The position numbers and the translations under genes are program-made. A stretch of DNA of 64,000 nucleotides, from sequence record PQ850613.1; one strand, given 5' to 3'. The notes under the pieces are model-generated. The model was not told the DNA's origin. It did not search any database and saw only the letters and a program-made list of their open reading frames with translations. Shown here one piece after another: positions 11,842 through 63,897 of this stretch. Source of the stretch: Escherichia phage KarlSchell_Bas89. The stretch's first letter is position 1; every line of letters starts with the position of its first letter.

Positions 11842-14800
11842 ATGGCTAACATTAAATCTTGGGAAGAAGCATCGAAAAGCCCCAAGTATATGAATGCAAC
11901 TCCTGAGCAACAGGCTCAGTTGAGAGAGCAATACAAAGCGGCAGGTGGTACAATCCCTGAAGATAAGCCAGTACAACCACAACAAGAAGAGCGTGGCTTA
12001 GTTGGTGAGTTCGCTCAGGGCGTATCTAATGCTATCGAATCTGGTGGAGCTAATATTGCAGCTAGTACCGCTCGTGGTTTAGGTGGTCTGGTTGAAATGG
12101 GTGAGAACGTTCTCGGTTCCCAAACAAGCTATGGTAAAAGAATTCAAGATAACGCAAAACAAGTATTAGAAAAGCGTATGGCTGGTATCGAGGATGGCTT
12201 TGGTAAGACTGCTGGGCAGTATGCTGGAGTGGCTGCTGATATCGGTTTGACAGTTGCTAACCCTGCTTTGGCTGCTGGTGTTATTGCGGGACGTGAAGCA
12301 GGGCGTGCTTATGCAGACCAGACTCCAGAAGAGGGAGAAGATAAGTCAGTGTTAGATGCTGCTCTTGTTGGTGGTGCTAACTTTGCAGCTCAGAAGATTC
12401 TTCCGGGTTTCACAGGAACAGCTGAGTCTACTTTAGGTCGTATTGGTCAGAGTGCTGCTTCTAACGCAGTGGCTGGTGCTAAGGGTGGTGCTCTCGTAGG
12501 TGCTGCTGAAGCTCAGAATAAGTATGGTGATGACACTACACTTGCCAATGTACTAGAAGGTGCAATTGATGAAGGTGTTGCTGGTGCTGCTTACGGCGGT
12601 GCTATTGGTGGTGTTCATGGTGCGATCAGTCGTCCTAGTCCTCAAGTATTTGATAAGACTCCTGAGAACGTTAAGACTGATATCTCCGCTGAAGATGAAG
12701 CGATTCGTAATGCTAAAAATGCTGATGAACTCCGTGAAGCTTATTCTCAAGCTGATACTGCTAACACAGCTTCCGCTCTTAACCTGCTAGACCAGAATGA
12801 TTTCCGTATTACAGATGCCGTGGCTATGGATTCTCCTGCTGCTCAACGTATCCTTAATACAGACCAGACTCGTGCTGAGAAAGCTGCTTCCTCTCTTACA
12901 GAGCGTTCTAACATCCCAGGTCTCAATCCTCTTGCTTCTCCAAGTAAGGTTAAGGGTAAAGCTTTTGCAGATAACGAACATAACCAGAAGCAAGCTGTAG
13001 CAATGAAAGATGCAATGGCTGACTACACTAAAGACAACACCAAGGCTCTTAATGATGTTCTTGATAATCTAGACAGAGAGTTGAATGACCTTCGTGTCCG
13101 TGGTGACTTTACTGGTAGCGCTATTGACATTAAGAATCAGACTCGTAATGATCGTGATTTCATTGATGCTTACAAGAACTTCTACACTGAAGCAAACAGA
13201 TTCAAAGCTCGTGATGGTGAAGACTTTAATAACTTTGTAGAGAAAGCTACCGAGCTACAGAAACTTGCTGATAATGTTTCTCCAGAGATGAAGAAAGCTA
13301 TTGGTGGTTTGAAGAAACTGAAAGGTATGCCTGAAGGTTTCAACCCTATCCAAGATGCCTTTACTCTGAATAACACAGCTAAATTAATGAGTAACCAAGA
13401 CCGTGGTTGGACAACCCTGACAGATGATGGTTTCCGTGAAGCCTCTTCTCCAAGTTTTGTTATGAACACCCTTGGTGCTGCTAAGTATGCTCTGAACCGC
13501 TTCTCTTCAGAGAGGGCTAGGTCTCAACGTGCTCGACAGCAGGATTCAAACAGTGAAGCAATTCGCTCTTTGGCTCGTGGTGATTTAGAGGTTGCTCGTG
13601 CTCGAAGTGCAGCAGCAAAAGCACGCGAAGAAATGGAAGCCGAACCGGTTGTTGATGACGTTCAATTTAAGACGCAAGCTGATGACCAAAATCAGGCTGG
13701 TTCTGAACCCTCTTCTCCAGCTACTGTGACGGAAGATTTCTCTCCTTCTCCAGCTCCTTTAACTGCTCGTGATTTGGTTGCTCAAAGACGTGCTATTCGA
13801 CAGGCGGAACAACGCCGTGCAGAGGAGGAAGCACAAGCTGCTCAGAATGCTCCAGTTGAACCAGAAGCTCCAGCAGAAACTTTGCCTACGCGTAACCCTC
13901 TTGAGGAACGTAGAGTGCAAGAAGCTGAGATGGAACAACAGCGTGCAGCAGAAGAGGCTGCTAAAGCTCCTGAGACGTCCGTAGAAGAGCCTACAGCTAA
14001 AGCTGAGCCGTTACCTGCTCGTGCTCCTAAAGCTCCTAAGGAAGCTGCTCCTGAGGTTAAACCGGCTACTGGTGTAGAACGTCTTGCTGCTATGTCAACA
14101 GCTGCTCGTCAGGCTACTAAAAACCGTGCTGAACGTTTTGCTCGTTCTTTGTATACTGCTGGTGCTAAAGCCAAAGCTACTGCGGAAAACTTCTTGGCTT
14201 ATAAAGGAGACCCGAAAGAGCTGATGCGTCGTATCCGTCAGGAAGACCAAGCGAACAATGCTGCTCGTCATGAAGAGATGGCTCGTAACCAACTAGCTTC
14301 TCAGCAAGGTATTGCAGCTGCTAAATCTAACCGAGTTCGTTCTGCATTCTCCGATTGGGTTAAAGAGCGTGGATTACCTTCTGAAATCGCCTCTAAAGCC
14401 CTACGTGCTGAAGAACGTGGATTGGATGGTAACGTATCAAGCCTAGACTCTTTGAAGCGCAGAGCTGAGCGTATGTATCAGAAAGAGCGTGATGATGAGT
14501 TTGATAGGCTGTATCGTGAAGCTCTGGAAGAAAACAAAGCTTTTGATAAGAAAGATGCACCTAAGCTGAAAGATCAGAAGGCTGAGTTCCAGTCAGAGAT
14601 TGATTCTCTACTTGAGAACGAACCTCTCCGTCCTGCTCAGAAAGATGCAATGCGTAAGATGATGAGTGATTTTGTTGATGGGAAGTTTAAAGCGGCTGAG
14701 AAAGCTGGAAGGGAAGAAGCTTTAGAGGTTGGTCAAATGAAGGATTTGTGGGATGGGTTTATTAATACCTACAATCGTGAAGTTGGCATGTTCAATAAAG

Positions 14801-16263
14801 CTAACAAGAACTCTCAGTATGAGGCAGCAGCTAAACATCTACAGGCTCGTGAAGAGCGTCTTACCTCTTTACGTAACAGAGCAGAAGCTCGTGCTCAAGC
14901 GAAAGCTACAGCAGAAGCTGAACGTCAGTCACTCGAAGCTATTGCTGGTCAGAAGACTGAGATAGAGAAGATGTTTGATGAGTTACCTAAACCTGTCCGC
15001 GAGGCTCAGGAAAGCCGTACTCTGAAACAGCTTGCAGCTCACCACGATAAGAACTCCCCTGTTCCTCCAGAACGTTTCCGTAGTATTATCGAACGTATCC
15101 ATAACGCAGAGTCCGACTACCTTGATCGTAAGCGTCGTCTCACTGATGCAGAGGAAGATGCTCGTGAAGCTAAGTGGAACAAGATGTATGAACAAGCAGA
15201 GGAGATGAACCGTAAATTCGATATAGATGCTCGCGTGTCCCGTGATAAGAGCCTCAAAGAAGCTCAGGAGCGACAGAATGATCTCATGGCAGTACAACGC
15301 CAACGTGATGACATTCACAGCCGTCTGGTGCGTTCTATCGAAGATAAGGGCATCCCTAAAGCTGATGCTGAAGCATTTGCTGGTTCTTATATGGATAACC
15401 GTTATGCTCTTCTTGAAAAACCTATGACCCCTACCGAGCATCAGAATGCTCGTGCACGTATTGAGTCCGATGTAGAGAAGTTTGCTAAGAAGTATGAAAG
15501 CTTGTCTCCTATCGAGAAAGACGTGGTTAAGATTACTGGTGATGTGGAAGGTAAACTGGATGGGTTGGATGCTGAGACTATGAAGGCAGTTGAGGAAGCT
15601 AGGAAGGTTGACTCTGATATTAAGAAACTTCAGGATGAAGAGTTGGAAATGGAGAAAGTCCGTTCAGCTTTACCTGATGATGAAAAGTCTCAGGCAAATT
15701 CCGACATTCTGGAAAGCATTAAAAAGCAAGAAGATGAGTTTGCAGGAAAGGTTGAGAAGGCATTCTTGGAAGGCAAGGACTTGAAGGAATTGGCTAGTGT
15801 TGCAGAGGTTCTGGATAGGGTTCATGGTGCTGACAAGGCTGGGAACAACCGTAGATTTGTTCGTGCTCTACAGACTGCTGCTGACAACAAGAATAAGTAT
15901 GGTGATAATCCGGTAGCTTGGTTTAGTGCTGATGATTACTCTGCTATTGCTAAACTTGGTGCTGCATCAGCGGGCGGTAACAAATCGAGAGCGTTGGAGA
16001 AGATCTTTGGTTCTACAGCAGATCAAGCTAAGGCTAAGCTTTTGGGGAGAGATGATGTAGCGAAGATTAGACGTGTGATTGAAGCGAATCCTGAAGTCAA
16101 GATTCCTTCTTACAAGACTACTACTCGTCAAGAGTATTTACAGTTCTTGGAGAAGTATAATGATGAAGGAGTGTTGAAAGTCAAACGTGGTTCTCTGTCT
16201 GACAGATTAGAAAGGAATAAGCGTCAAGCTAAACTCCGTGTTAGAGTTCGCTCGAAAGAGTAA
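11842..16263 (+). CDS. large (1473 aa) coiled-coil-rich virion protein (internal core/ejection-type)
   Basis: Long ORF with RBS AAGGAG; A/E/K/R-rich helical composition; last gene of the plus-strand structural block. Confidence 0.55.
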   Translation: MANIKSWEEASKSPKYMNATPEQQAQLREQYKAAGGTIPEDKPVQPQQEERGLVGEFAQGVSNAIESGGANIAASTARGLGGLVEMGENVLGSQTSYGKRIQDNAKQVLEKRMAGIEDGFGKTAGQYAGVAADIGLTVANPALAAGVIAGREAGRAYADQTPEEGEDKSVLDAALVGGANFAAQKILPGFTGTAESTLGRIGQSAASNAVAGAKGGALVGAAEAQNKYGDDTTLANVLEGAIDEGVAGAAYGGAIGGVHGAISRPSPQVFDKTPENVKTDISAEDEAIRNAKNADELREAYSQADTANTASALNLLDQNDFRITDAVAMDSPAAQRILNTDQTRAEKAASSLTERSNIPGLNPLASPSKVKGKAFADNEHNQKQAVAMKDAMADYTKDNTKALNDVLDNLDRELNDLRVRGDFTGSAIDIKNQTRNDRDFIDAYKNFYTEANRFKARDGEDFNNFVEKATELQKLADNVSPEMKKAIGGLKKLKGMPEGFNPIQDAFTLNNTAKLMSNQDRGWTTLTDDGFREASSPSFVMNTLGAAKYALNRFSSERARSQRARQQDSNSEAIRSLARGDLEVARARSAAAKAREEMEAEPVVDDVQFKTQADDQNQAGSEPSSPATVTEDFSPSPAPLTARDLVAQRRAIRQAEQRRAEEEAQAAQNAPVEPEAPAETLPTRNPLEERRVQEAEMEQQRAAEEAAKAPETSVEEPTAKAEPLPARAPKAPKEAAPEVKPATGVERLAAMSTAARQATKNRAERFARSLYTAGAKAKATAENFLAYKGDPKELMRRIRQEDQANNAARHEEMARNQLASQQGIAAAKSNRVRSAFSDWVKERGLPSEIASKALRAEERGLDGNVSSLDSLKRRAERMYQKERDDEFDRLYREALEENKAFDKKDAPKLKDQKAEFQSEIDSLLENEPLRPAQKDAMRKMMSDFVDGKFKAAEKAGREEALEVGQMKDLWDGFINTYNREVGMFNKANKNSQYEAAAKHLQAREERLTSLRNRAEARAQAKATAEAERQSLEAIAGQKTEIEKMFDELPKPVREAQESRTLKQLAAHHDKNSPVPPERFRSIIERIHNAESDYLDRKRRLTDAEEDAREAKWNKMYEQAEEMNRKFDIDARVSRDKSLKEAQERQNDLMAVQRQRDDIHSRLVRSIEDKGIPKADAEAFAGSYMDNRYALLEKPMTPTEHQNARARIESDVEKFAKKYESLSPIEKDVVKITGDVEGKLDGLDAETMKAVEEARKVDSDIKKLQDEELEMEKVRSALPDDEKSQANSDILESIKKQEDEFAGKVEKAFLEGKDLKELASVAEVLDRVHGADKAGNNRRFVRALQTAADNKNKYGDNPVAWFSADDYSAIAKLGAASAGGNKSRALEKIFGSTADQAKAKLLGRDDVAKIRRVIEANPEVKIPSYKTTTRQEYLQFLEKYNDEGVLKVKRGSLSDRLERNKRQAKLRVRVRSKE

Positions 16264-39626: not shown

Positions 39627-39865
39627 AAAGAAGTTACTCCCTTATCTTCTTGGGCGATAGAGATGATACGACTCACACACTGCATTGAGTACTCATCACC
39701 ACGCTTTAGGAACGTTACGATAGCAGAGAATTGATTACCAATCATCCGCTCATTTGTAATACCGAACTCTTTGCAGAGTTCTTTCAGTTTGCTACGAGAA
39801 CCAATAATCAGAGGTTCTTTTTCTTCAGTCATTCCACGACTAATCAAATCTTCAATAGACAACAT
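39623..39865 (-). CDS. hypothetical small protein
   Basis: ORF only. Confidence 0.3.
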   Translation of the reverse strand: MLSIEDLISRGMTEEKEPLIIGSRSKLKELCKEFGITNERMIGNQFSAIVTFLKRGDEYSMQCVSRIISIAQEDKGVTSL

Positions 39866-57410: not shown

Positions 57411-58322
57411 TTATGCTGCATTTTGACGTGCTGCCATAATCTCAGCCGCTTTCCGCAAGATCTCTTCTTGCTCAGCCGCCGCCGCTTGTTCTGTACGGAT
57501 TGCAACCGTTGAAGAGATACGACCGCGCAGATTATCTAACTTCTCCTGCATTTTTGCGATGGTTGATTCCATTTCATCGGCATAAGAATCCAGTGATTCC
57601 AATTCCTTGCTTGATGCGTTCATCAAGTAGTCATCAGAGATCGCTACGGTTGAAGCCGTTACTTTCTTAATCAGGGAGTCAAAGGACTTCTTAACCTTGC
57701 CCACTTCTTCACTAAGGGCAATAGTGTTATCACTGGTAGCGCCGTTACGCTCATCCGCCAACAGTTTAGCTTCAATACGGATTGCATTCAAGCGTTCAAC
57801 CAGAGCGTAAATATCTTGATTAAAATCTTCCTTTACTTTCGCCGGAATTTGCAGGTGTGCCGCTACGTTATCGTTGCAACCTTTGAAGAAGTTAGGATTA
57901 TCTACTTCGATTTCATCACCTTTGGCGAATTTTTCGAAAGAGTTAGACCAACGAGCGCGGTTTTGTTCCATTTTCGCCTTAATTTGCGCTTCTTTCGCAT
58001 CTTCTTTCGCTTTCGCTTCACCTTCTAAAGTAATCCACTTCTTACGACCATTTGCCGCCTCAGTGTTATATTTGATAGGAGTTAAGAAAGTGATCGCGGT
58101 AGCAATTACATCAAAATCGCGAAAACGTTCAGTTAACAGGAAATCAACCGCCGTCTGCAATACGTCCAACTTCTTACCGTTGCTACGGAAGTGCTGCAAA
58201 TGACCTAACAAGAAGTTAGAAACATCTTGCTTAATTGCCGCGTTGTTGCTACGGATATTGTTAGCCAGTGCATTAAAACCAGATTCGTTAACCAGATTAA
58301 AAACTTTAGCCATGATATTCAC
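57411..58322 (-). CDS. hypothetical early protein (helical)
   Basis: 303-aa ORF directly downstream (minus sense) of the large non-coding region. Confidence 0.45.
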   Translation of the reverse strand: MNIMAKVFNLVNESGFNALANNIRSNNAAIKQDVSNFLLGHLQHFRSNGKKLDVLQTAVDFLLTERFRDFDVIATAITFLTPIKYNTEAANGRKKWITLEGEAKAKEDAKEAQIKAKMEQNRARWSNSFEKFAKGDEIEVDNPNFFKGCNDNVAAHLQIPAKVKEDFNQDIYALVERLNAIRIEAKLLADERNGATSDNTIALSEEVGKVKKSFDSLIKKVTASTVAISDDYLMNASSKELESLDSYADEMESTIAKMQEKLDNLRGRISSTVAIRTEQAAAAEQEEILRKAAEIMAARQNAA

Positions 58323-59134
58323 CTTTCAATTGTAAGGGCGCTATTGCCCCGCTCTCTATGAGCTTGTTTAAGCCACTATTGACTTATCGATAACCACTCA
58401 TTTTTAAGTAGTTATTGATAAGTAAGGGAGTCTTATCAGGAATTAACCTTGCTCCCTTATTATCTGCGATGTTTCATCCGGTATCTTTAATTAGTCGCTA
58501 TAAACTAAGCCGACCTGATAGCGATGATCAATCATCACAATAAGGCAGTGTGCCCGACTCTAATTAGTTACTTTATTGTAACCGTCGGTAATATCGTTTA
58601 CTCTGTTTTCGCTCCCGCCTATCCTTTTGTACCAACTCTCAATCGCTAACCATCGCCCACTACGGGAGGTTATTGCGAAAAAGTCATTAGCCGTCTGATA
58701 CATTGACGTTTGATTATCTTTCAGCAGGTTTACTACATAAACTGATTATGTACGCCATCAATAGTGGCCTCAAATCATTCACTTCGTAAACGTTCACACT
58801 AAACCTTATTGTTAAATAGCAATTTGCTACTCTTTAACCACTCCCCGCCGCTCGCAATTGAGCGTTAATTCTTCGGATTTGCCTACCCTGATTAACTTCT
58901 TTCACCGTAGCGCCTTGTTAGCGATGACCGCCGCTACCCTTAACCGTGGGCGATTAGCTTAAGTCTTTGCGTGCACTCGATGAATCTGCTTATCAGTGGT
59001 GACGTTTCCAGTAAGGGATTGTAAGATTGTTTACTCTGATAACTTAGAGAATCTTACACCGTTTTATCTGGTATGCTATCCGATGGTTATTATCATCTAG
59101 CATATTCAACCGATATAGAAGAATGTTTAAATTG

Positions 59135-59613
59135 TTAAAGAGCGGTAAATCTATCAGTGTGCTTTCTCACACTATGCAACTGTTAGCCGTTGTTACGCTG
59201 TTCACTTCGCGGTGATTTGCTTAGTGAGTGCTCATTATGAATCATGTTGTTTTAGCTGTCAACCACTTTTTTAATCTTTTTTCGTCGTTCCCGCTGTTGG
59301 GAGGATATATCAATCAGCTTTATTTGATTGAAGATTAAGCGGTAAGGCTTAACTTATGATTCATATTTTTAAAGAGCGGTGAAGCATTTACAGCTTAACA
59401 CATCGTGTTAGCTTGTCAACTCTTTTTATCATCTTCTTTTAATTCTTTTCCCTTATCTCGCGTGAATCTTTGCGAAAGGGCAAGATGATAAATTTTTAAA
59501 GAGCGGGATGTTTCAAGTCATCGCTGACTGTGCTCATTATGTATCAGGCTTTTTCCGGTGTCAATACTCTTTTTCAAGTATTTTCACTTTCTAGCCTGAT
59601 TTTTAAAGAGCGG
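59135..59613. repeat. array of four TTTTTAAAGAGCGG repeats plus three TGTCAAnnACTnTTTTT motifs within a 1.6 kb non-coding region
   Basis: Copies at about 59135, 59366, 59493, 59600; no ORF of 60 aa or more apart from one weak 68-aa ORF. Confidence 0.55.
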
Positions 59614-59948
59614 GGCAATTTCTTGCCTTGTATGTTTTACATCGTACCCGATGAAATGAAGTATACGCTAATCGGACGGGTATGCAATAGGGATAAGCAA
59701 ATTATTTTAAACTTTTTTGAAAGGTGGGAAGTGTAAGAGAGTGCGCGCGGGATAACATACGCAAAACAGGCTGTAAATCACTTTCTAACGTCCTGTAAGC
59801 CATCCTAACGAGCTAATCAGGGATAAGGCATACAATCACCCCAGAAACGAGAAAAGCCTCACTAGGAGGCTTATAGGAAGGATTTAGAGCATCAGATAGA
59901 TTATGACCATAGGCATGACTACGGCACAATACAGGAGAAAGATTAGCC

Positions 59949-60314
59949 CTATGGATTTACACATTGACCGTTACCGGATGCTACTTCATTCATAGACTCA
60001 TCGAACAAGGTTAGGGATGAGCGTAACAGGTGATCGATCATGATTTGCTTGCCAGTGGTTTCATTTACCAACTGGATAGTTTTATCGAATGATTGTACCC
60101 GATTGAAATCACTAACGTGTAAAATAATAACCTTCGGTGACTTTTTACCAGTGTCATAATTCTCAATCAAATAGGTGCACTGTAAACCGTCAACCGTAGC
60201 AGGGGAGAACGTTACAGCCTTAACATTACCCATAGACGAGAAGAATAGCGCCACCGTAGCAACGAACAAGCCACGCCAAAAATAATCACGAATCACTATT
60301 GCTATCCTCGCCAA
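59949..60314 (-). CDS. secreted/membrane protein (N-terminal hydrophobic segment)
   Basis: FWRGLFVATVALFFSSMGNVKA. Confidence 0.35.
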   Translation of the reverse strand: MARIAIVIRDYFWRGLFVATVALFFSSMGNVKAVTFSPATVDGLQCTYLIENYDTGKKSPKVIILHVSDFNRVQSFDKTIQLVNETTGKQIMIDHLLRSSLTLFDESMNEVASGNGQCVNP

Positions 60315-60568
60315 AAAAATGCTACGCTAATCTGTTCCACTTCTTCCAGCGATAGAAGAATCCCACGTTGGGCTAAATACTTCCCAACAGTTAGATAGTC
60401 CTGCACTAAACAGACAACAGGAAAGCGGATAGTTTGTATCTCACCCTTAGAAAGAAAGGATAAATATCCAACGTCACTTGACTCATCAAAGGATAGTGTA
60501 ACTCCACCGTAATTGTGCGTATCAATTAGCGCAATAGTTTCATTTCCCATAATATTTCCAATCCTCAT
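60302..60568 (-). CDS. hypothetical small protein
   Basis: ORF only. Confidence 0.3.
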   Translation of the reverse strand: MRIGNIMGNETIALIDTHNYGGVTLSFDESSDVGYLSFLSKGEIQTIRFPVVCLVQDYLTVGKYLAQRGILLSLEEVEQISVAFFWRG

Positions 60569-61116
60569 TATTGTTTAGCACTGATACAATCAGCCAGATT
60601 AATATGAATGGTGTACATCGCATTATCTTCGCTATTGTAAACCGTGGTAGCAAGTATTGATTCATTTATCGGGCCATAGCTGACCAGATTAGTGACAGCT
60701 TTCGCATGGCTGTAACGTTGTACAGTGCCATATGTAACTAGTTCGGGATCGTTATCAGTACGCTTTAATAACAGATCTTCATTGCCCTGATTATCTAGTG
60801 TTTTGGTACTAACGACCAGACCATCACGGGAAACATTACTAAGTTTAACTTTTAAAACGACCTGATTGGTGTCACTATCCGCACCATTACAGATTAGCCA
60901 TTGCTTCGGTGCAGTCTTAACGAATAGACTAGCGGCATCATTAGCAACAGGAGCAGGACTAGCAACAGCGTTGTCAGAGATAGCACCAACGGCAGCACTG
61001 ACACCGATAGCTGCAACCAGTGCATAACTTGCAAGGTTAATAGATTGCATAACTCTGATACGTGTATTCATAATCCTACCCTTATAAAATAGATTTAATT
61101 TGATTGTATGTTTCAC
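60568..61116 (-). CDS. secreted protein (signal peptide)
   Basis: MQSINLASYALVAAIGVSAAVGAIS. Confidence 0.4.
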   Translation of the reverse strand: MKHTIKLNLFYKGRIMNTRIRVMQSINLASYALVAAIGVSAAVGAISDNAVASPAPVANDAASLFVKTAPKQWLICNGADSDTNQVVLKVKLSNVSRDGLVVSTKTLDNQGNEDLLLKRTDNDPELVTYGTVQRYSHAKAVTNLVSYGPINESILATTVYNSEDNAMYTIHINLADCISAKQ

Positions 61117-61479
61117 AAAGTAGCACGTATATCTTATTCATACGTAGGGCCATTGCTCAGTTGACCGCTTCACTGACCTGATAGTGTTCTGGCTTGCGCC
61201 AGTCAATCACGGAGTCCTTACTTTTAAACATTCTCACTTACTTAAGCTGATTAGCCTTCGGTGAGCTTACTACGTTAAGAAGCTACTTTGCATCACTGCT
61301 TTACTTCCTAACTACAAACTACACTCGCAACTATATATTAAAGGAAAAGATTGTCAACCATTTATTTTCTGACTTTCTCATAACTTATTGGATTATAAAG
61401 GAATTTAATTTACTAAACTTTCTCATTCAGGGCATAGATTACTACTTCTATTGTTACACTATCACATAACGCCAGACAT

Positions 61480-62016
61480 ACGGGGAGAACAGGCCGCATA
61501 AACAGACATACGGGGCAACGGTACAACGCAACCAGCACGGGGGAAGGATAAACGGGTAACATATAATGTATGTTGTTACATGATGCTATGGTTAGCGGCT
61601 TGCGGAAGTAATATACCAATCAAATAATTCACTCATCAAACTATCACGCACTGCGTGCAACGCTGAAAAAGAAAGAGATTAAAAGAATAACATAAAGAAA
61701 CAATTAAAAGAATAATAATAACATCAATTATCAATACCAATCTAACTATTACATACATCATTAATCCACTCATAATTATCACTCATAGAATCATTTACAT
61801 TCAAACTATGGGGCGATGTGATGGTTACTATCCTATACTATTCTACCTGCAATAATGTGCCCTTTACTAGTTCCTATACAGTGCTAGCCTCTCATACCCT
61901 CCCAATTAATGAATGAAATAAACGGGGCAAAAGTAATGCCTACTATATTACACGGGGTAACAACCTCAAGGGATAGGACACGGGGAAGACTGGAACGTTC
62001 AGGCATGTTCACGGGG
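61480..62016. repeat. eight (C)ACGGGG repeats in two clusters flanking an AT-rich spacer (iteron-like)
   Basis: Copies at 61480, 61510, 61537, 61552 (degenerate), 61922, 61952, 61980, 62011, spaced about 27-31 bp within clusters; AT-rich 61620-61900 between. Confidence 0.55.
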
Positions 62017-62150
62017 AAAGGAGGAAGCGAGGGAATAGCCATAATTTAAATGAGGACTCCCCCTTTTTAGGAAACGCGCTCGGAGGGGCTAGGTCCACTC
62101 GGTCAAATCAGAATTTTAAACTGTTATATATAAGGTTGAGAGAGGAATTA

Positions 62151-62312
62151 ATGAATCTAATTAAAGTGTTTAGACGGATGAAATGTAAACACAATTACTA
62201 CCTTCTTCGTAAAGCTTACGGGGATGAAAGAGTACACGGGCTATACCTATCAACATGGAAATGTAAGGATTGTGGTAAGCTACGGTTTAGTGAATGGATA
62301 GACAGACCGTAA
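62151..62312 (+). CDS. small zinc-ribbon protein (53 aa, below track cutoff)
   Basis: ATG with GAGAGAGG upstream; CKH...CKDCG cysteine pairs. Confidence 0.35.
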   Translation: MNLIKVFRRMKCKHNYYLLRKAYGDERVHGLYLSTWKCKDCGKLRFSEWIDRP

Positions 62313-62593
62313 TGGAATGGATATTCTGGTTAGTAATAATCTTCTGTTTGTTCATCTGCTTCTCTATAGCAAGATGTATCAAATATGACTAAGCCTTAAC
62401 ATGACATGGCCTTTATGTGAGGTCCCCTTTATATCAGAGGATATAGTAAATATGACAGAAGATGAATACGGTAGCTTCTCTGAAGAAGACTACGAAATAG
62501 AATACAGATATACTCACGGGGTGGCCTTAATATGAGTGAGTCATCAAAGATGACGACCCCTTTATGTCTTCCCTTTTTCAGAGGAGAATTAAT

Positions 62594-62851
62594 ATGGATT
62601 TTATCTTAGACTTTTTATCAGAGGTGATTCCTCGGTTTCGCACTGAAAGATGTGCATTCACATTTGAAGATATGGGTGACGGGGAGTTAATCCTCACTTG
62701 TATTGGTCGCTTAGTAGACCTAGATGATGACGAAGACTTCGATGCCACAATGGATGTAAGCTCCTTGAGTTGGCTTTACATGAGAGCTTTCCTGTCATTC
62801 AAAACAAACACATTTACTGATTATAGAAAAGAGGACACTGATAATGAATAA
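62594..62851 (+). CDS. hypothetical acidic protein
   Basis: Internal ATG with AGAGGAG upstream. Confidence 0.35.
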   Translation: MDFILDFLSEVIPRFRTERCAFTFEDMGDGELILTCIGRLVDLDDDEDFDATMDVSSLSWLYMRAFLSFKTNTFTDYRKEDTDNE

Positions 62852-63426: not shown

Positions 63427-63897
63427 ATGTTTGGTGAAAAAGGAGAACTCACGCCTCTACAGGTAGCTGAGATTACAGGAAGATTACCCGGAGTAACGGA
63501 AGAACTTGAATCCAAGGGTATGAACCCAAGCAATGGAAAGTTTCAAAAAGGAAATAAGTTTGGTAGACCAAAAGGTAGTAGAGGTAAACTTACTCAGCTT
63601 ATGTTAGACCGAGTAGCTTCTAGTCATTTGTCTCCTGATGAAGTGTTAATTCAAATTTACGAAGACCCTAATATTCCGCCTGATCTTAGATTCAAGGCTG
63701 CATCAAAAGTCGCAGATCTAGTTTATCCTAAGGCAGCTTCTGTTGAAATTAAGATGGAGGATGAGAATGCAATTAATGAGGAAACGTTGAATGCACAAAT
63801 CAAGGACTTCTTGACCGGAGCTTTAGGTATTGATGTTATGCCTCCAGAAGACTCTGAGGACGCTGAAAAGGAGGAGGAAGCGGACGAGAGTAAATAA
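63427..63897 (+). CDS. hypothetical protein with GRPK motif and acidic C-terminus (possible small terminase/DNA-binding)
   Basis: KGNKFGRPKGSRGKLT; lies where a packaging module would be expected. Confidence 0.3.
   Translation: MFGEKGELTPLQVAEITGRLPGVTEELESKGMNPSNGKFQKGNKFGRPKGSRGKLTQLMLDRVASSHLSPDEVLIQIYEDPNIPPDLRFKAASKVADLVYPKAASVEIKMEDENAINEETLNAQIKDFLTGALGIDVMPPEDSEDAEKEEEADESK

Follow-up and report, generated by a model that had tools for sequence, protein, structure and literature searches.

What do two groups of short direct repeats do in the large intergenic region of a coliphage genome, where the direction of the genes changes? The window, a stretch of 64,000 nucleotides from Escherichia phage KarlSchell_Bas89 (sequence record PQ850613.1), raises this question between a block of minus-strand genes and a plus-strand gene starting at 62151. 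An earlier note on this DNA counted eight copies of ACGGGG here, one of them degenerate, in two groups around an AT-rich stretch, and suggested either a replication origin or a protein-binding array that controls early transcription. Our recount agrees with the description. There are seven exact copies of ACGGGG and one ACGGGT, all on the plus strand and divided between two groups, and no minus-strand ACGGGG is present between 61440 and 62040. The location between the two gene blocks is correct as described, and the stretch between the groups is indeed AT-rich, with a GC content of 0.31 at 61620-61885 and 0.21 at 61680-61800, compared with 0.42 for the window. The two groups are the following.

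61480..61557, plus strand: cluster 1, with ACGGGG at 61480, 61510 and 61537 and a degenerate ACGGGT at 61552.
61922..62016, plus strand: cluster 2, with ACGGGG at 61922, 61952, 61980 and 62011, located within the direct terminal repeat (DTR).

Successive copies are separated by 30, 27 and 15 bp in cluster 1 and by 30, 28 and 31 bp in cluster 2, which also contains a decayed half-copy of the motif near 61968. The spacing of roughly 27-31 bp that had been noted before is thus found for most steps, but its reading as three helical turns does not hold. Relatives have copies at offsets of 36, 65, 79 and 92, including steps of 13-15 bp, and the repeating unit is therefore about 14.5 or 29 bp. With such spacings, successive sites would face different sides of the helix.

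The clustering is not expected from composition. ACGGGG occurs 17 times in the whole window, compared with 8.4 +/- 2.8 in dinucleotide-preserving shuffles. When all hexamers on both strands were each scored by their densest 600-bp interval, plus-strand ACGGGG emerged as the most locally clustered (7 copies in 600 bp, Poisson 3e-10).

The position of the clusters becomes informative once the ends of the genome are located. The window DNA matches only phiEco32-like coliphages (Kuravirus group, subfamily Gordonclarkvirinae), and the closest relatives, KBNP1711 and EP335, are approximately 90% identical. The records of phiEco32, SU10 and YF01 all stop at the base aligned with position 62090 of the window, and the phiEco32 record opens with AGCCTTTC... 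/ AGCCTTTCTC..., which aligns to position 61886. In 4E8, a direct terminal repeat of 206 bp is annotated, and its two boundaries coincide with these positions. Experimental mapping gave DTRs of 192-193 bp in phiEco32, SU10, Paul and YF01 (PMC4281155, PMC9965538), and the ends of SU10 are blunt (PMC4281155). Taken together, the ends of the related records, the 4E8 annotation and the mapped repeats indicate that the window is an assembly that runs through a concatemer junction. By homology, the predicted physical ends are 61885|61886 and 62090|62091, which puts the left end of the genome at 61886 and its right end at 62090. The context GCT|AG is found at each of the two boundaries (left agtGCT|AGCCTC, right gggGCT|AGGTCC). 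Applied to phiEco32 and 4E8, a boundary rule based on this context returns 193 and 206 bp, respectively. Three elements of the junction follow from these comparisons.

61886..62090, plus strand: DTR of 205 bp, placed by homology to mapped ends and collapsed to a single copy at the concatemer junction.
62049..62079, plus strand: near-invariant core AATGAGGACTCCCCCTTTTTAGGAAACGCGC in the 3' part of the DTR, identified by alignment, 11-41 bp from the right cut.
62099..62121, plus strand: invariant 23-mer TCGGTCAAATCAGAATTTTAAAC, just past the right boundary of the DTR and ahead of gene 1, with 0-1 mismatches in 18 of 19 junctions.

The AATGAGGACTCCCCCTTTTTAGGAAACGCGC core corresponds to a conserved region described at nt 130-170 (PMC9965538) and is kept even in the distant relatives L049-L054. 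Cluster 2 is part of the DTR, and cluster 1 belongs to the unique sequence of the right end, approximately 330 bp upstream of the right-hand DTR copy. The 700 bp downstream of the DTR show a sparse enrichment, with 4 copies of ACGGG compared with 0.25 expected. We also considered a genome-wide directional signal and rejected it, as the motif is at background outside the junction (5 copies, compared with a mean of 5.7 for hexamers of the same composition).

The distance between the DTR array and the left cut is constant. In 24 of 24 loci, exactly 36 bp separate the left cut from the start of the first DTR copy, and the second copy follows at 65-66 bp; in the window, the offsets of cluster 2 are 36, 66, 94 and 125. 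This is observed across predicted DTR lengths of 192-194, 205-206 and 249-250 bp, the last in the lineage of TH34 and Bas87, and only about half of the 36-bp interval itself is identical between lineages. Other distances are variable: the last copy is 74, 95 or 135 bp from the right cut, and cluster 1 is 254-369 bp from the cut. The last copy of cluster 1 lies at a fixed distance of 20-22 bp from the conserved block TGCGGnAnTAATATACC... in Kuravirus-type phages, and the distance of the cluster to the leftward promoter region is fairly constant (131-169 bp).

To follow the arrays among relatives, we used 19 assembled junctions and then further ones from metagenomes, approximately 25 in all; scans of IMG/VR added few. 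Position, number, strand and spacing of the repeats are all kept, and the loss among relatives that the earlier note had named as speaking against its proposal was not seen. Nearly all of the 19 junctions carry ACGGG copies at the same two places, on the plus strand only and with similar spacing. Cluster 1 is represented by 3-4 same-strand copies, 27-31 bp apart, in about 20 relatives. It is retained in NJ01, 172-1, O18-011 and MN03, where the left flank with the leftward promoter-gene block has been replaced. In the complete phiEco32 genome, clusters of at least three ACGGG[GT] in 150 bp are found only in the two DTR copies and in cluster 1. Copies have been gained or lost through lineage-specific insertions, as at 61552 and 62011 in the lineage of the window, and Bas92 and Bas94 have a reduced cluster 1.

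Conservation is concentrated in the motif. In an alignment of 15 sequences, where the window is 60-69% identical to Kuravirus-type phages, the ACGGG core columns have an identity of 0.83 compared with 0.52 elsewhere, a value reached by 86 of 20,000 random block sets. The copies resemble each other in the core only and do not share flanks, so they are not simple or tandem duplications.

A change of the motif itself is observed in the lineage of TH34, Bas87 and ECBP2, where both clusters contain ATGGGTA or ACGGGTA, i.e. A(T/C)GGGTA. The 4+4 architecture is kept, with four copies upstream at distances of 28-30 bp and DTR copies at offsets of 36, 65, 93 and 108. In the complete Bas87 genome, clusters of this variant are found only at these two loci. 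Two separate arrays have thus switched motif together, which implies one shared, sequence-specific reader. More distant relatives, whose gp6 is 70-85% identical, retain the DTR core AATGAGGACTCCCCCTTTT as well as upstream copies of AACGGG(G/T), and the motif family is therefore old in the group.

Two further readings of the motif were rejected. A G-quadruplex would need loops of about 25 nt, and the variant lineage has runs of GGG only. Primase recognition sites of the T7 type are GTC-based and dissimilar to the motif.

We are confident in proposing, from comparative sequence analysis, that the arrays are cis-acting protein-binding arrays of a genome-terminus, or concatemer-junction, module. 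A conserved array resembling protein-binding sites in a regulatory intergenic region, as seen in the earlier note, is thus upheld; its origin reading is less likely, as the array is locked 36 bp from the left cut, has a parallel in T7 and lacks iteron features. The same three points favor a role in terminus formation or packaging over an origin. A narrower interpretation, in which the arrays would form a cosB-like recognition array for the terminase, is in our judgment evenly poised between right and wrong. A candidate reader is encoded close by.

63427..63897, plus strand: gp6 homologue of 156 aa, putative small terminase, directly upstream of the large terminase gene in relatives.

To the right of the DTR, the gp6 gene is found at a distance of about 1.3 kb and the gene of the large terminase (TerL) at about 2.1 kb. 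The homologue of gp6 in YF01 was assigned as small terminase (TerS) by an HMM-based approach (PMC9965538). Neither gp6 nor its neighboring genes contain a Pfam domain above threshold, and a single-sequence phmmer search of gp6 against the PDB found nothing. A profile built from 34 homologues gave 7JOQ (E = 0.0027) and 6W7T, the PaP3 TerS (E = 0.061), as its best PDB matches, which cover the oligomerisation core only. The N-terminal basic arm has sub-threshold matches to DUF5681 in 32 of the 34 homologues. A structural route to TerS was given up: the AF2 monomer model, based on the 34-sequence alignment, is poor (pLDDT 65, pTM 0.29), and a Foldseek search of the PDB with this model returned no match with E < 1. 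The TerS of PaP3 is a nonamer with N-terminal HTH motifs and binds DNA sequence-specifically (PMC7672466).

In a packaging mechanism of this kind, the gp6 homologue would act as an oligomeric small terminase akin to the ring-forming TerS of the PaP3 type; it would bind the head-to-tail sites and thereby mark the junction on replicating concatemers. Bound gp6 would then place the large terminase for cleavage at the GCT|AG boundaries, with the left cut 36 bp from the array. Cluster 1 could serve as an upstream partner site, either by looping or by signalling, as a packaging run finishes, that the junction is near. The presence of all copies on one strand fits such a directional process. The variable distance of cluster 1 from the cut counts against this mechanism, as does the similarity of gp6 across motif types.

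More tentatively, a ring-shaped TerS could read sites of 6-8 bp, and the change from ACGGGG to ATGGGTA could be matched by a change in gp6 and represent a switch of packaging specificity; we regard this as possible but doubtful. Residues 33-36 of gp6 are NPSN in 5 loci with ACGGGG and EPST in 11 loci with ATGGGTA, a correlation confounded by ancestry and linkage. The four residues adjoin the basic arm GKFxKGNKFGRPKGSRGK, and gp6 is approximately 92% identical across motif types. Because no more than 1.7 kb separate gp6 from the DTR and the examined genomes are co-linear with lineage, the pairing of gp6 and motif is consistent with coupling and does not constitute evidence for it. A search for mosaic genomes that would separate gp6 from the DTR provided no independent contrast, as L040 is Bas87-like throughout except for gene 1. 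A comparison of whole proteomes for covariation, which covered phiEco32, Bas87 and the window, did not discriminate, since a large number of early genes are different in Bas87. The proteins gp126, gp122 and gp95 are also lineage-specific among these three phages.

Among the alternatives, a replication origin survives best, although we consider it unlikely. The repeats would be iteron-like sites bound by an initiator of the phage or the host, the AT-rich spacer would unwind, and initiation would take place at the concatemer junction or genome end. The two groups flank a 265-bp stretch with a GC content of 0.31 and a core of 0.21, and several invariant blocks within it have no assigned role. The spacer and its neighborhood contain the following elements.

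61601..61629, no strand assigned: conserved block TGCGGnAnTAATATACCAnTnAAATAATT, identified by alignment.
61660..61813, no strand assigned: AT-rich spacer with invariant blocks, identified by alignment, GC content 0.21-0.31.
61660-61675: invariant block ACGCTGAAAAAGAAAG in the AT-rich spacer.
61737-61776: invariant block CCAnTnTAAnTAnTACATAnATCATTAnTnCACTCATAAT in the AT-rich spacer.
61803-61813: invariant block AAACTATGGGG in the AT-rich spacer.

The ATGGGG at 61808, within the AAACTATGGGG block, may be a further copy of the motif. Intrinsic bending of the spacer was rejected: the A-tracts lack a 10-11-bp periodicity or helical phasing, and we therefore claim no bending.

Further points speak for an origin at this locus. 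The secondary origins of T7 at phiOL and phiOR are located beside its terminal repeats, and the phiOL and phiOR promoters are annotated in the T7 record. In addition, hypothetical genes make up more than 60% of the gene content of these phages and leave room for an unrecognised initiator. The minimum of the cumulative GC skew also falls here, although the switch in gene orientation explains it as well. Against these stand the properties of the repeats. Their conserved core is 6-8 bp with variable flanks, and spacings of 27-31 or 13-15 bp differ from the 11/22-bp phasing of iterons. No initiator of the Rep, lambda-O or DnaA type is annotated in complete phiEco32 or Bas87, and the replisome is T7-like, with a primase-helicase and a family-A polymerase. 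The length and content of the spacer vary widely among relatives, up to a tandem amplification in Bas92. Finally, an origin does not predict a cluster that is duplicated at both ends within the DTR and locked to the cut.

Control of transcription is less probable still, and we give it little weight. A factor of the phage or the host, bound to the arrays, would regulate divergent early promoters, leftward at 61357-61330 and rightward at about 62100-62145. The elements that bear on this possibility are the leftward promoter and a promoter-like sequence next to cluster 1.

61330..61357, minus strand: strong early promoter of the sigma-70 type, TTGACA-16-TATAGT, found by promoter scan, leading into the leftward early operon (gp128 homologue).
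61562..61572, plus strand: TATAATGTATG, pointing to the DTR, within a lineage-restricted insertion of about 42 bp, resembling a sigma-70 -10 element and the gp36-sigma element.

A promoter upstream of the equivalent gene of SU10 has been described (PMC4281155). The promoter scan additionally predicted an extended -10-like promoter at 61639-61610, on the minus strand of the TGCGGnAnTAATATACCAnTnAAATAATT region (TTGATG-18-TATATT after TG). The insertion with TATAATGTATG is present in the window, 4E8, EP335, TH34 and Bas87. The gp36-sigma element has the consensus tAATGTAtA (PMC4281155, PMC8948821), and the mapped gp36 promoters are found only upstream of genes 6, 13, 26, 40, 58 and 68 (PMC8948821). 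We rejected TATAATGTATG as a gp36-sigma promoter, since the element is absent from phiEco32.

Each cluster is located upstream of one early promoter, at 123-200 bp for the leftward and about 90-180 bp for the rightward direction (PMC4281155), and the near-constant distance of cluster 1 from the leftward promoter would be in line with a regulatory role. However, distances of 90-200 bp are long for classical activators or repressors, and the copies have a single orientation that is not mirrored about the divergent promoters. Cluster 1 also persists in the four phages mentioned above in which the leftward promoter block is replaced. The switch from early to middle transcription in phiEco32 is brought about by gp79 acting on RNA polymerase and not by DNA sites (PMC8948821, PMC12276001), and the exact 36-bp tie to the cut would not be expected from a promoter model.

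It is similarly improbable that the sites act on mature linear DNA, to hold or pause the end that is ejected first, to recruit a factor for protection of the ends or to promote recombination between the terminal repeats. Cluster 2 is present at both ends of every virion DNA, as would suit such a role, and the right-end DTR, the spacer and cluster 1 fill the approximately 735 bp that separate the terminus from the first early promoter. In T7, the terminal repeat and the CCTAAAG array fill the equivalent stretch from the left end to promoters A1-A3. On the other hand, the array keeps its distance from the left boundary of the DTR, and at the right end of mature DNA this boundary is internal. The identity of the first-entering end is inferred, and no protein presents itself as a candidate.

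That the repeats have no function, as a relic of local duplication or a compositional artefact, is barely credible: the lineage-specific gains and losses of copies and the reduced cluster 1 of Bas92 and Bas94 would suit it, but the cores are invariant while the flanks drift, the copies share the motif and not the flanks, the motif switch is concerted over both clusters, the 36-bp offset is exact, and neither a coding nor an RNA explanation is at hand, as lineages disagree in the strand and frame of the stop-free stretches that cover the arrays, leaving no conserved ORF, and Rfam gave no RNA family in 58000-62400.

Our preferred reading, a terminus module used in packaging, bears on packaging in phages with exact DTRs. 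According to a 2026 review, the initiation and termination of packaging are less understood in phages with exact DTRs (T3/T7 and T5 types) than in those with cos or headful packaging (PMC13595956). The DTR, the conserved region in its 3' part and a CCCTTTTTTA repeat have already been described for these phages. The ACGGGG arrays are not mentioned in the literature that we searched; the phiEco32 papers of Savalia 2008 and Pavlova 2012 lie outside that search and may mention repeats. The phiEco32-like phages represent a natural experiment: the distance to the cut is fixed at 36 bp, the motif exists in the two variants ACGGGG and ATGGGTA, and the small protein proposed as reader shows differences at a few clustered positions. 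Given this natural switch of the motif, array-swap and residue-swap experiments would be straightforward. If the specificity switch is real, it would isolate co-infecting Kuravirus lineages from one another. There are also practical consequences. Most deposited genomes of the group are arbitrarily permuted, and the DTR boundaries together with the GCT|AG context allow them to be re-oriented. Any engineering or rebooting of these coliphages, which are candidates for therapy, would have to leave the cis elements intact.

Comparison with known systems places the arrays among terminal sites. The iteron origins of lambda (ori) and of plasmids with Rep share with them direct repeats beside an AT-rich stretch in a large intergenic region. 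Their repeats, however, are 17-22 bp long, whereas the core here is 6-8 bp, 11/22-bp phasing is absent and there is no recognisable initiator gene. In addition, one of the arrays is here part of a terminal repeat and locked to a cut site. LUZ24, which has a homologous TerS of the PaP3 type, carries assorted short repeats in its DTR and no clean phased array.

In the pac region of SPP1, the repeat boxes pacL and pacR are bound by the small terminase G1P on either side of the cleavage site pacC. The likeness is in two separate repeat groups, one on each side of the cleavage region, an arrangement suggestive of looping or wrapping of the DNA in a complex with an oligomeric TerS (for context on SPP1 pac, see PMC7672466 and PMC13595956). 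SPP1 differs in packaging by the headful, with a single initiation cut and circularly permuted genomes, while both ends are exact here. The repeats of pacL and pacR also differ from each other, while one motif is used in both of our clusters.

In the cos region of lambda, cosN is flanked by cosB, with the sites R3, R2 and R1 bound by the small terminase gpNu1, and by the upstream elements R4 and cosQ. As in our arrangement, several short sites are found within about 40-130 bp on a single side of the cut, followed by the TerS gene and then the TerL gene, and a further element is located upstream of the cut. In contrast, lambda introduces staggered nicks at one site and produces cohesive ends, whereas two blunt cuts 205 bp apart would be needed here. 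The R sites are 16 bp long, have mixed orientation and need bending by IHF, and gp6 is only a putative reader.

The closest parallel in architecture is found in T7. Its motif CCTAAAG is present at positions 17, 41 and 60 within the 160-bp terminal repeat, in eight copies at 175-332, and at 39671 and 39700 to the left of the right terminal repeat. These 13 copies at the two ends of the genome are all on one strand. The flanking repeat regions of T7 were reportedly named SRL and SRR by Dunn and Studier in 1983, and we know of no established function for the CCTAAAG repeats. Both systems have a short motif of 6-7 bp in many same-strand copies, close to the left boundary inside the terminal repeat as well as in the flanks, and in both, exact short DTRs are cut from concatemers. 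The main array of T7 directly adjoins the terminal repeat on its right, whereas the second array here is about 330 bp to the left and the right side is sparse, and the T7 spacing is 13-25 bp compared with about 29 or 14.5 bp. The motifs (ACGGGG and CCTAAAG) are unrelated, as are the proteins, and the junction DNA matched only phiEco32-like phages, so the likeness is one of architecture only. With these comparisons in mind, the arrays most likely belong with the repeat arrays that are associated with terminal repeats or terminase sites.

The same sequence context, GCT|AG(C/G)C, is found at both ends of the direct terminal repeat (DTR), and is kept across all relatives compared. The features of this region, and one distant cluster of repeats, are located as follows.

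Window 13529-13762 (approximate), plus strand: TGCTCG/GCTCGT/CTGCTC cluster within the large gp26-homologue gene (11842-16260)
Window 61558-61600: lineage-specific insertion of ~42 bp, directly 3' of the first ACGGGG cluster (cluster 1)
Window 61883-61889 and 62088-62094: DTR boundary contexts
Window 62218, 62236, 62516 and 62679, for example, plus strand: sparse ACGGG copies in the first genes right of the DTR

The conserved context may represent a signature of the terminase cleavage site. DTR lengths predicted from it fall into three values, one per lineage: 192–194, 205–206 and 249–250 bp. For the lineage of TH34, Bas87 and ECBP2, the prediction is a DTR of 249–250 bp, compared to the ~193 bp assumed for the group.

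The core of the array motif, ACGGG, continues to the right of the DTR. In the 700 bp of window 62091-62790, the plus strand contains 4 copies, where 0.25 would be expected, and the minus strand contains none. At 62218, inside gene 1, the copy is retained in the DNA of both phiEco32 and 4E8, despite a protein identity of only ~44%. With 6 copies in 600 bp, TGCTCG/GCTCGT/CTGCTC is the second most clustered hexamer family of the window; since it is located inside the gp26-homologue gene, it probably reflects repetition in the coding sequence.

Gene 1 is also the site of a small mosaic patch in the metagenomic relative L040, where positions 2707-2901, corresponding to window 62150-62340, carry a window-type gene 1. 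The identity of the patch is 0.82–0.87 to the window, but 0.54–0.62 to Bas87. Otherwise L040, in common with ECBP2, is Bas87-like over the whole junction and the gp4–gp6 region. The L040 patch shows recombination directly right of the DTR.

The flank of cluster 1 differs between lineages. The ~42-bp insertion is carried by the window, 4E8, EP335, TH34 and Bas87, and is absent from phiEco32-type phages. It contains an additional ACGGGT copy and, oriented toward the DTR, TATAATGTATGTTGTTACATGATGC, which is similar to a -10 element as well as to the gp36-sigma promoter element tAATGTAtA. In Bas92 (L027), the A-rich spacer unit AAAAGAATAAAAGAAACGCTGAAAAAGA is amplified in tandem between -460 and -360 from the anchor, and cluster 1 retains a single copy. 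Even large differences in spacer length and copy number are therefore tolerated.

The early leftward operon contains the following features.

Window 58322-59949: gene-free stretch of ~1.6 kb
Window 59262-59234, minus strand: near-consensus sigma-70 promoter, TTGACA-17-CATAAT, in the gene-free stretch
Window 59564-59536, minus strand: second promoter of the same description, in the same stretch
Window 59872-59854: terminator-like hairpin, in the same stretch
Window 59949-60314, minus strand: ORF of 121 aa, matching PHROG 13168, labelled 'terminase'
Window 60568-61230, minus strand: gp128 homologue, 182 aa

Homologues of the 121-aa ORF carry the terminase annotation in 4E8 and Bas87. The ORF has no Pfam match and sits in the host-takeover region, distant from the packaging genes; the label looks doubtful. 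Still, its product, as a small putative DNA-binding protein whose gene lies four genes away from the terminus, could be a reader of the arrays, alternative to the gp6 homologue, a putative small terminase.

The adjacent gene-free stretch, which has no Rfam matches, is unusually large given the compactness of the phage. In phiEco32, gp124 and gp125 are separated by an equivalent gap of 1.9 kb. The N-terminus of the gp128 homologue appears, from sequence comparison, to be shortened or replaced: the protein covers only 55% of phiEco32 gp128 (tblastn), which has 290 aa, as in EP335. The 4E8 homologue, at 164 aa, is short as well.
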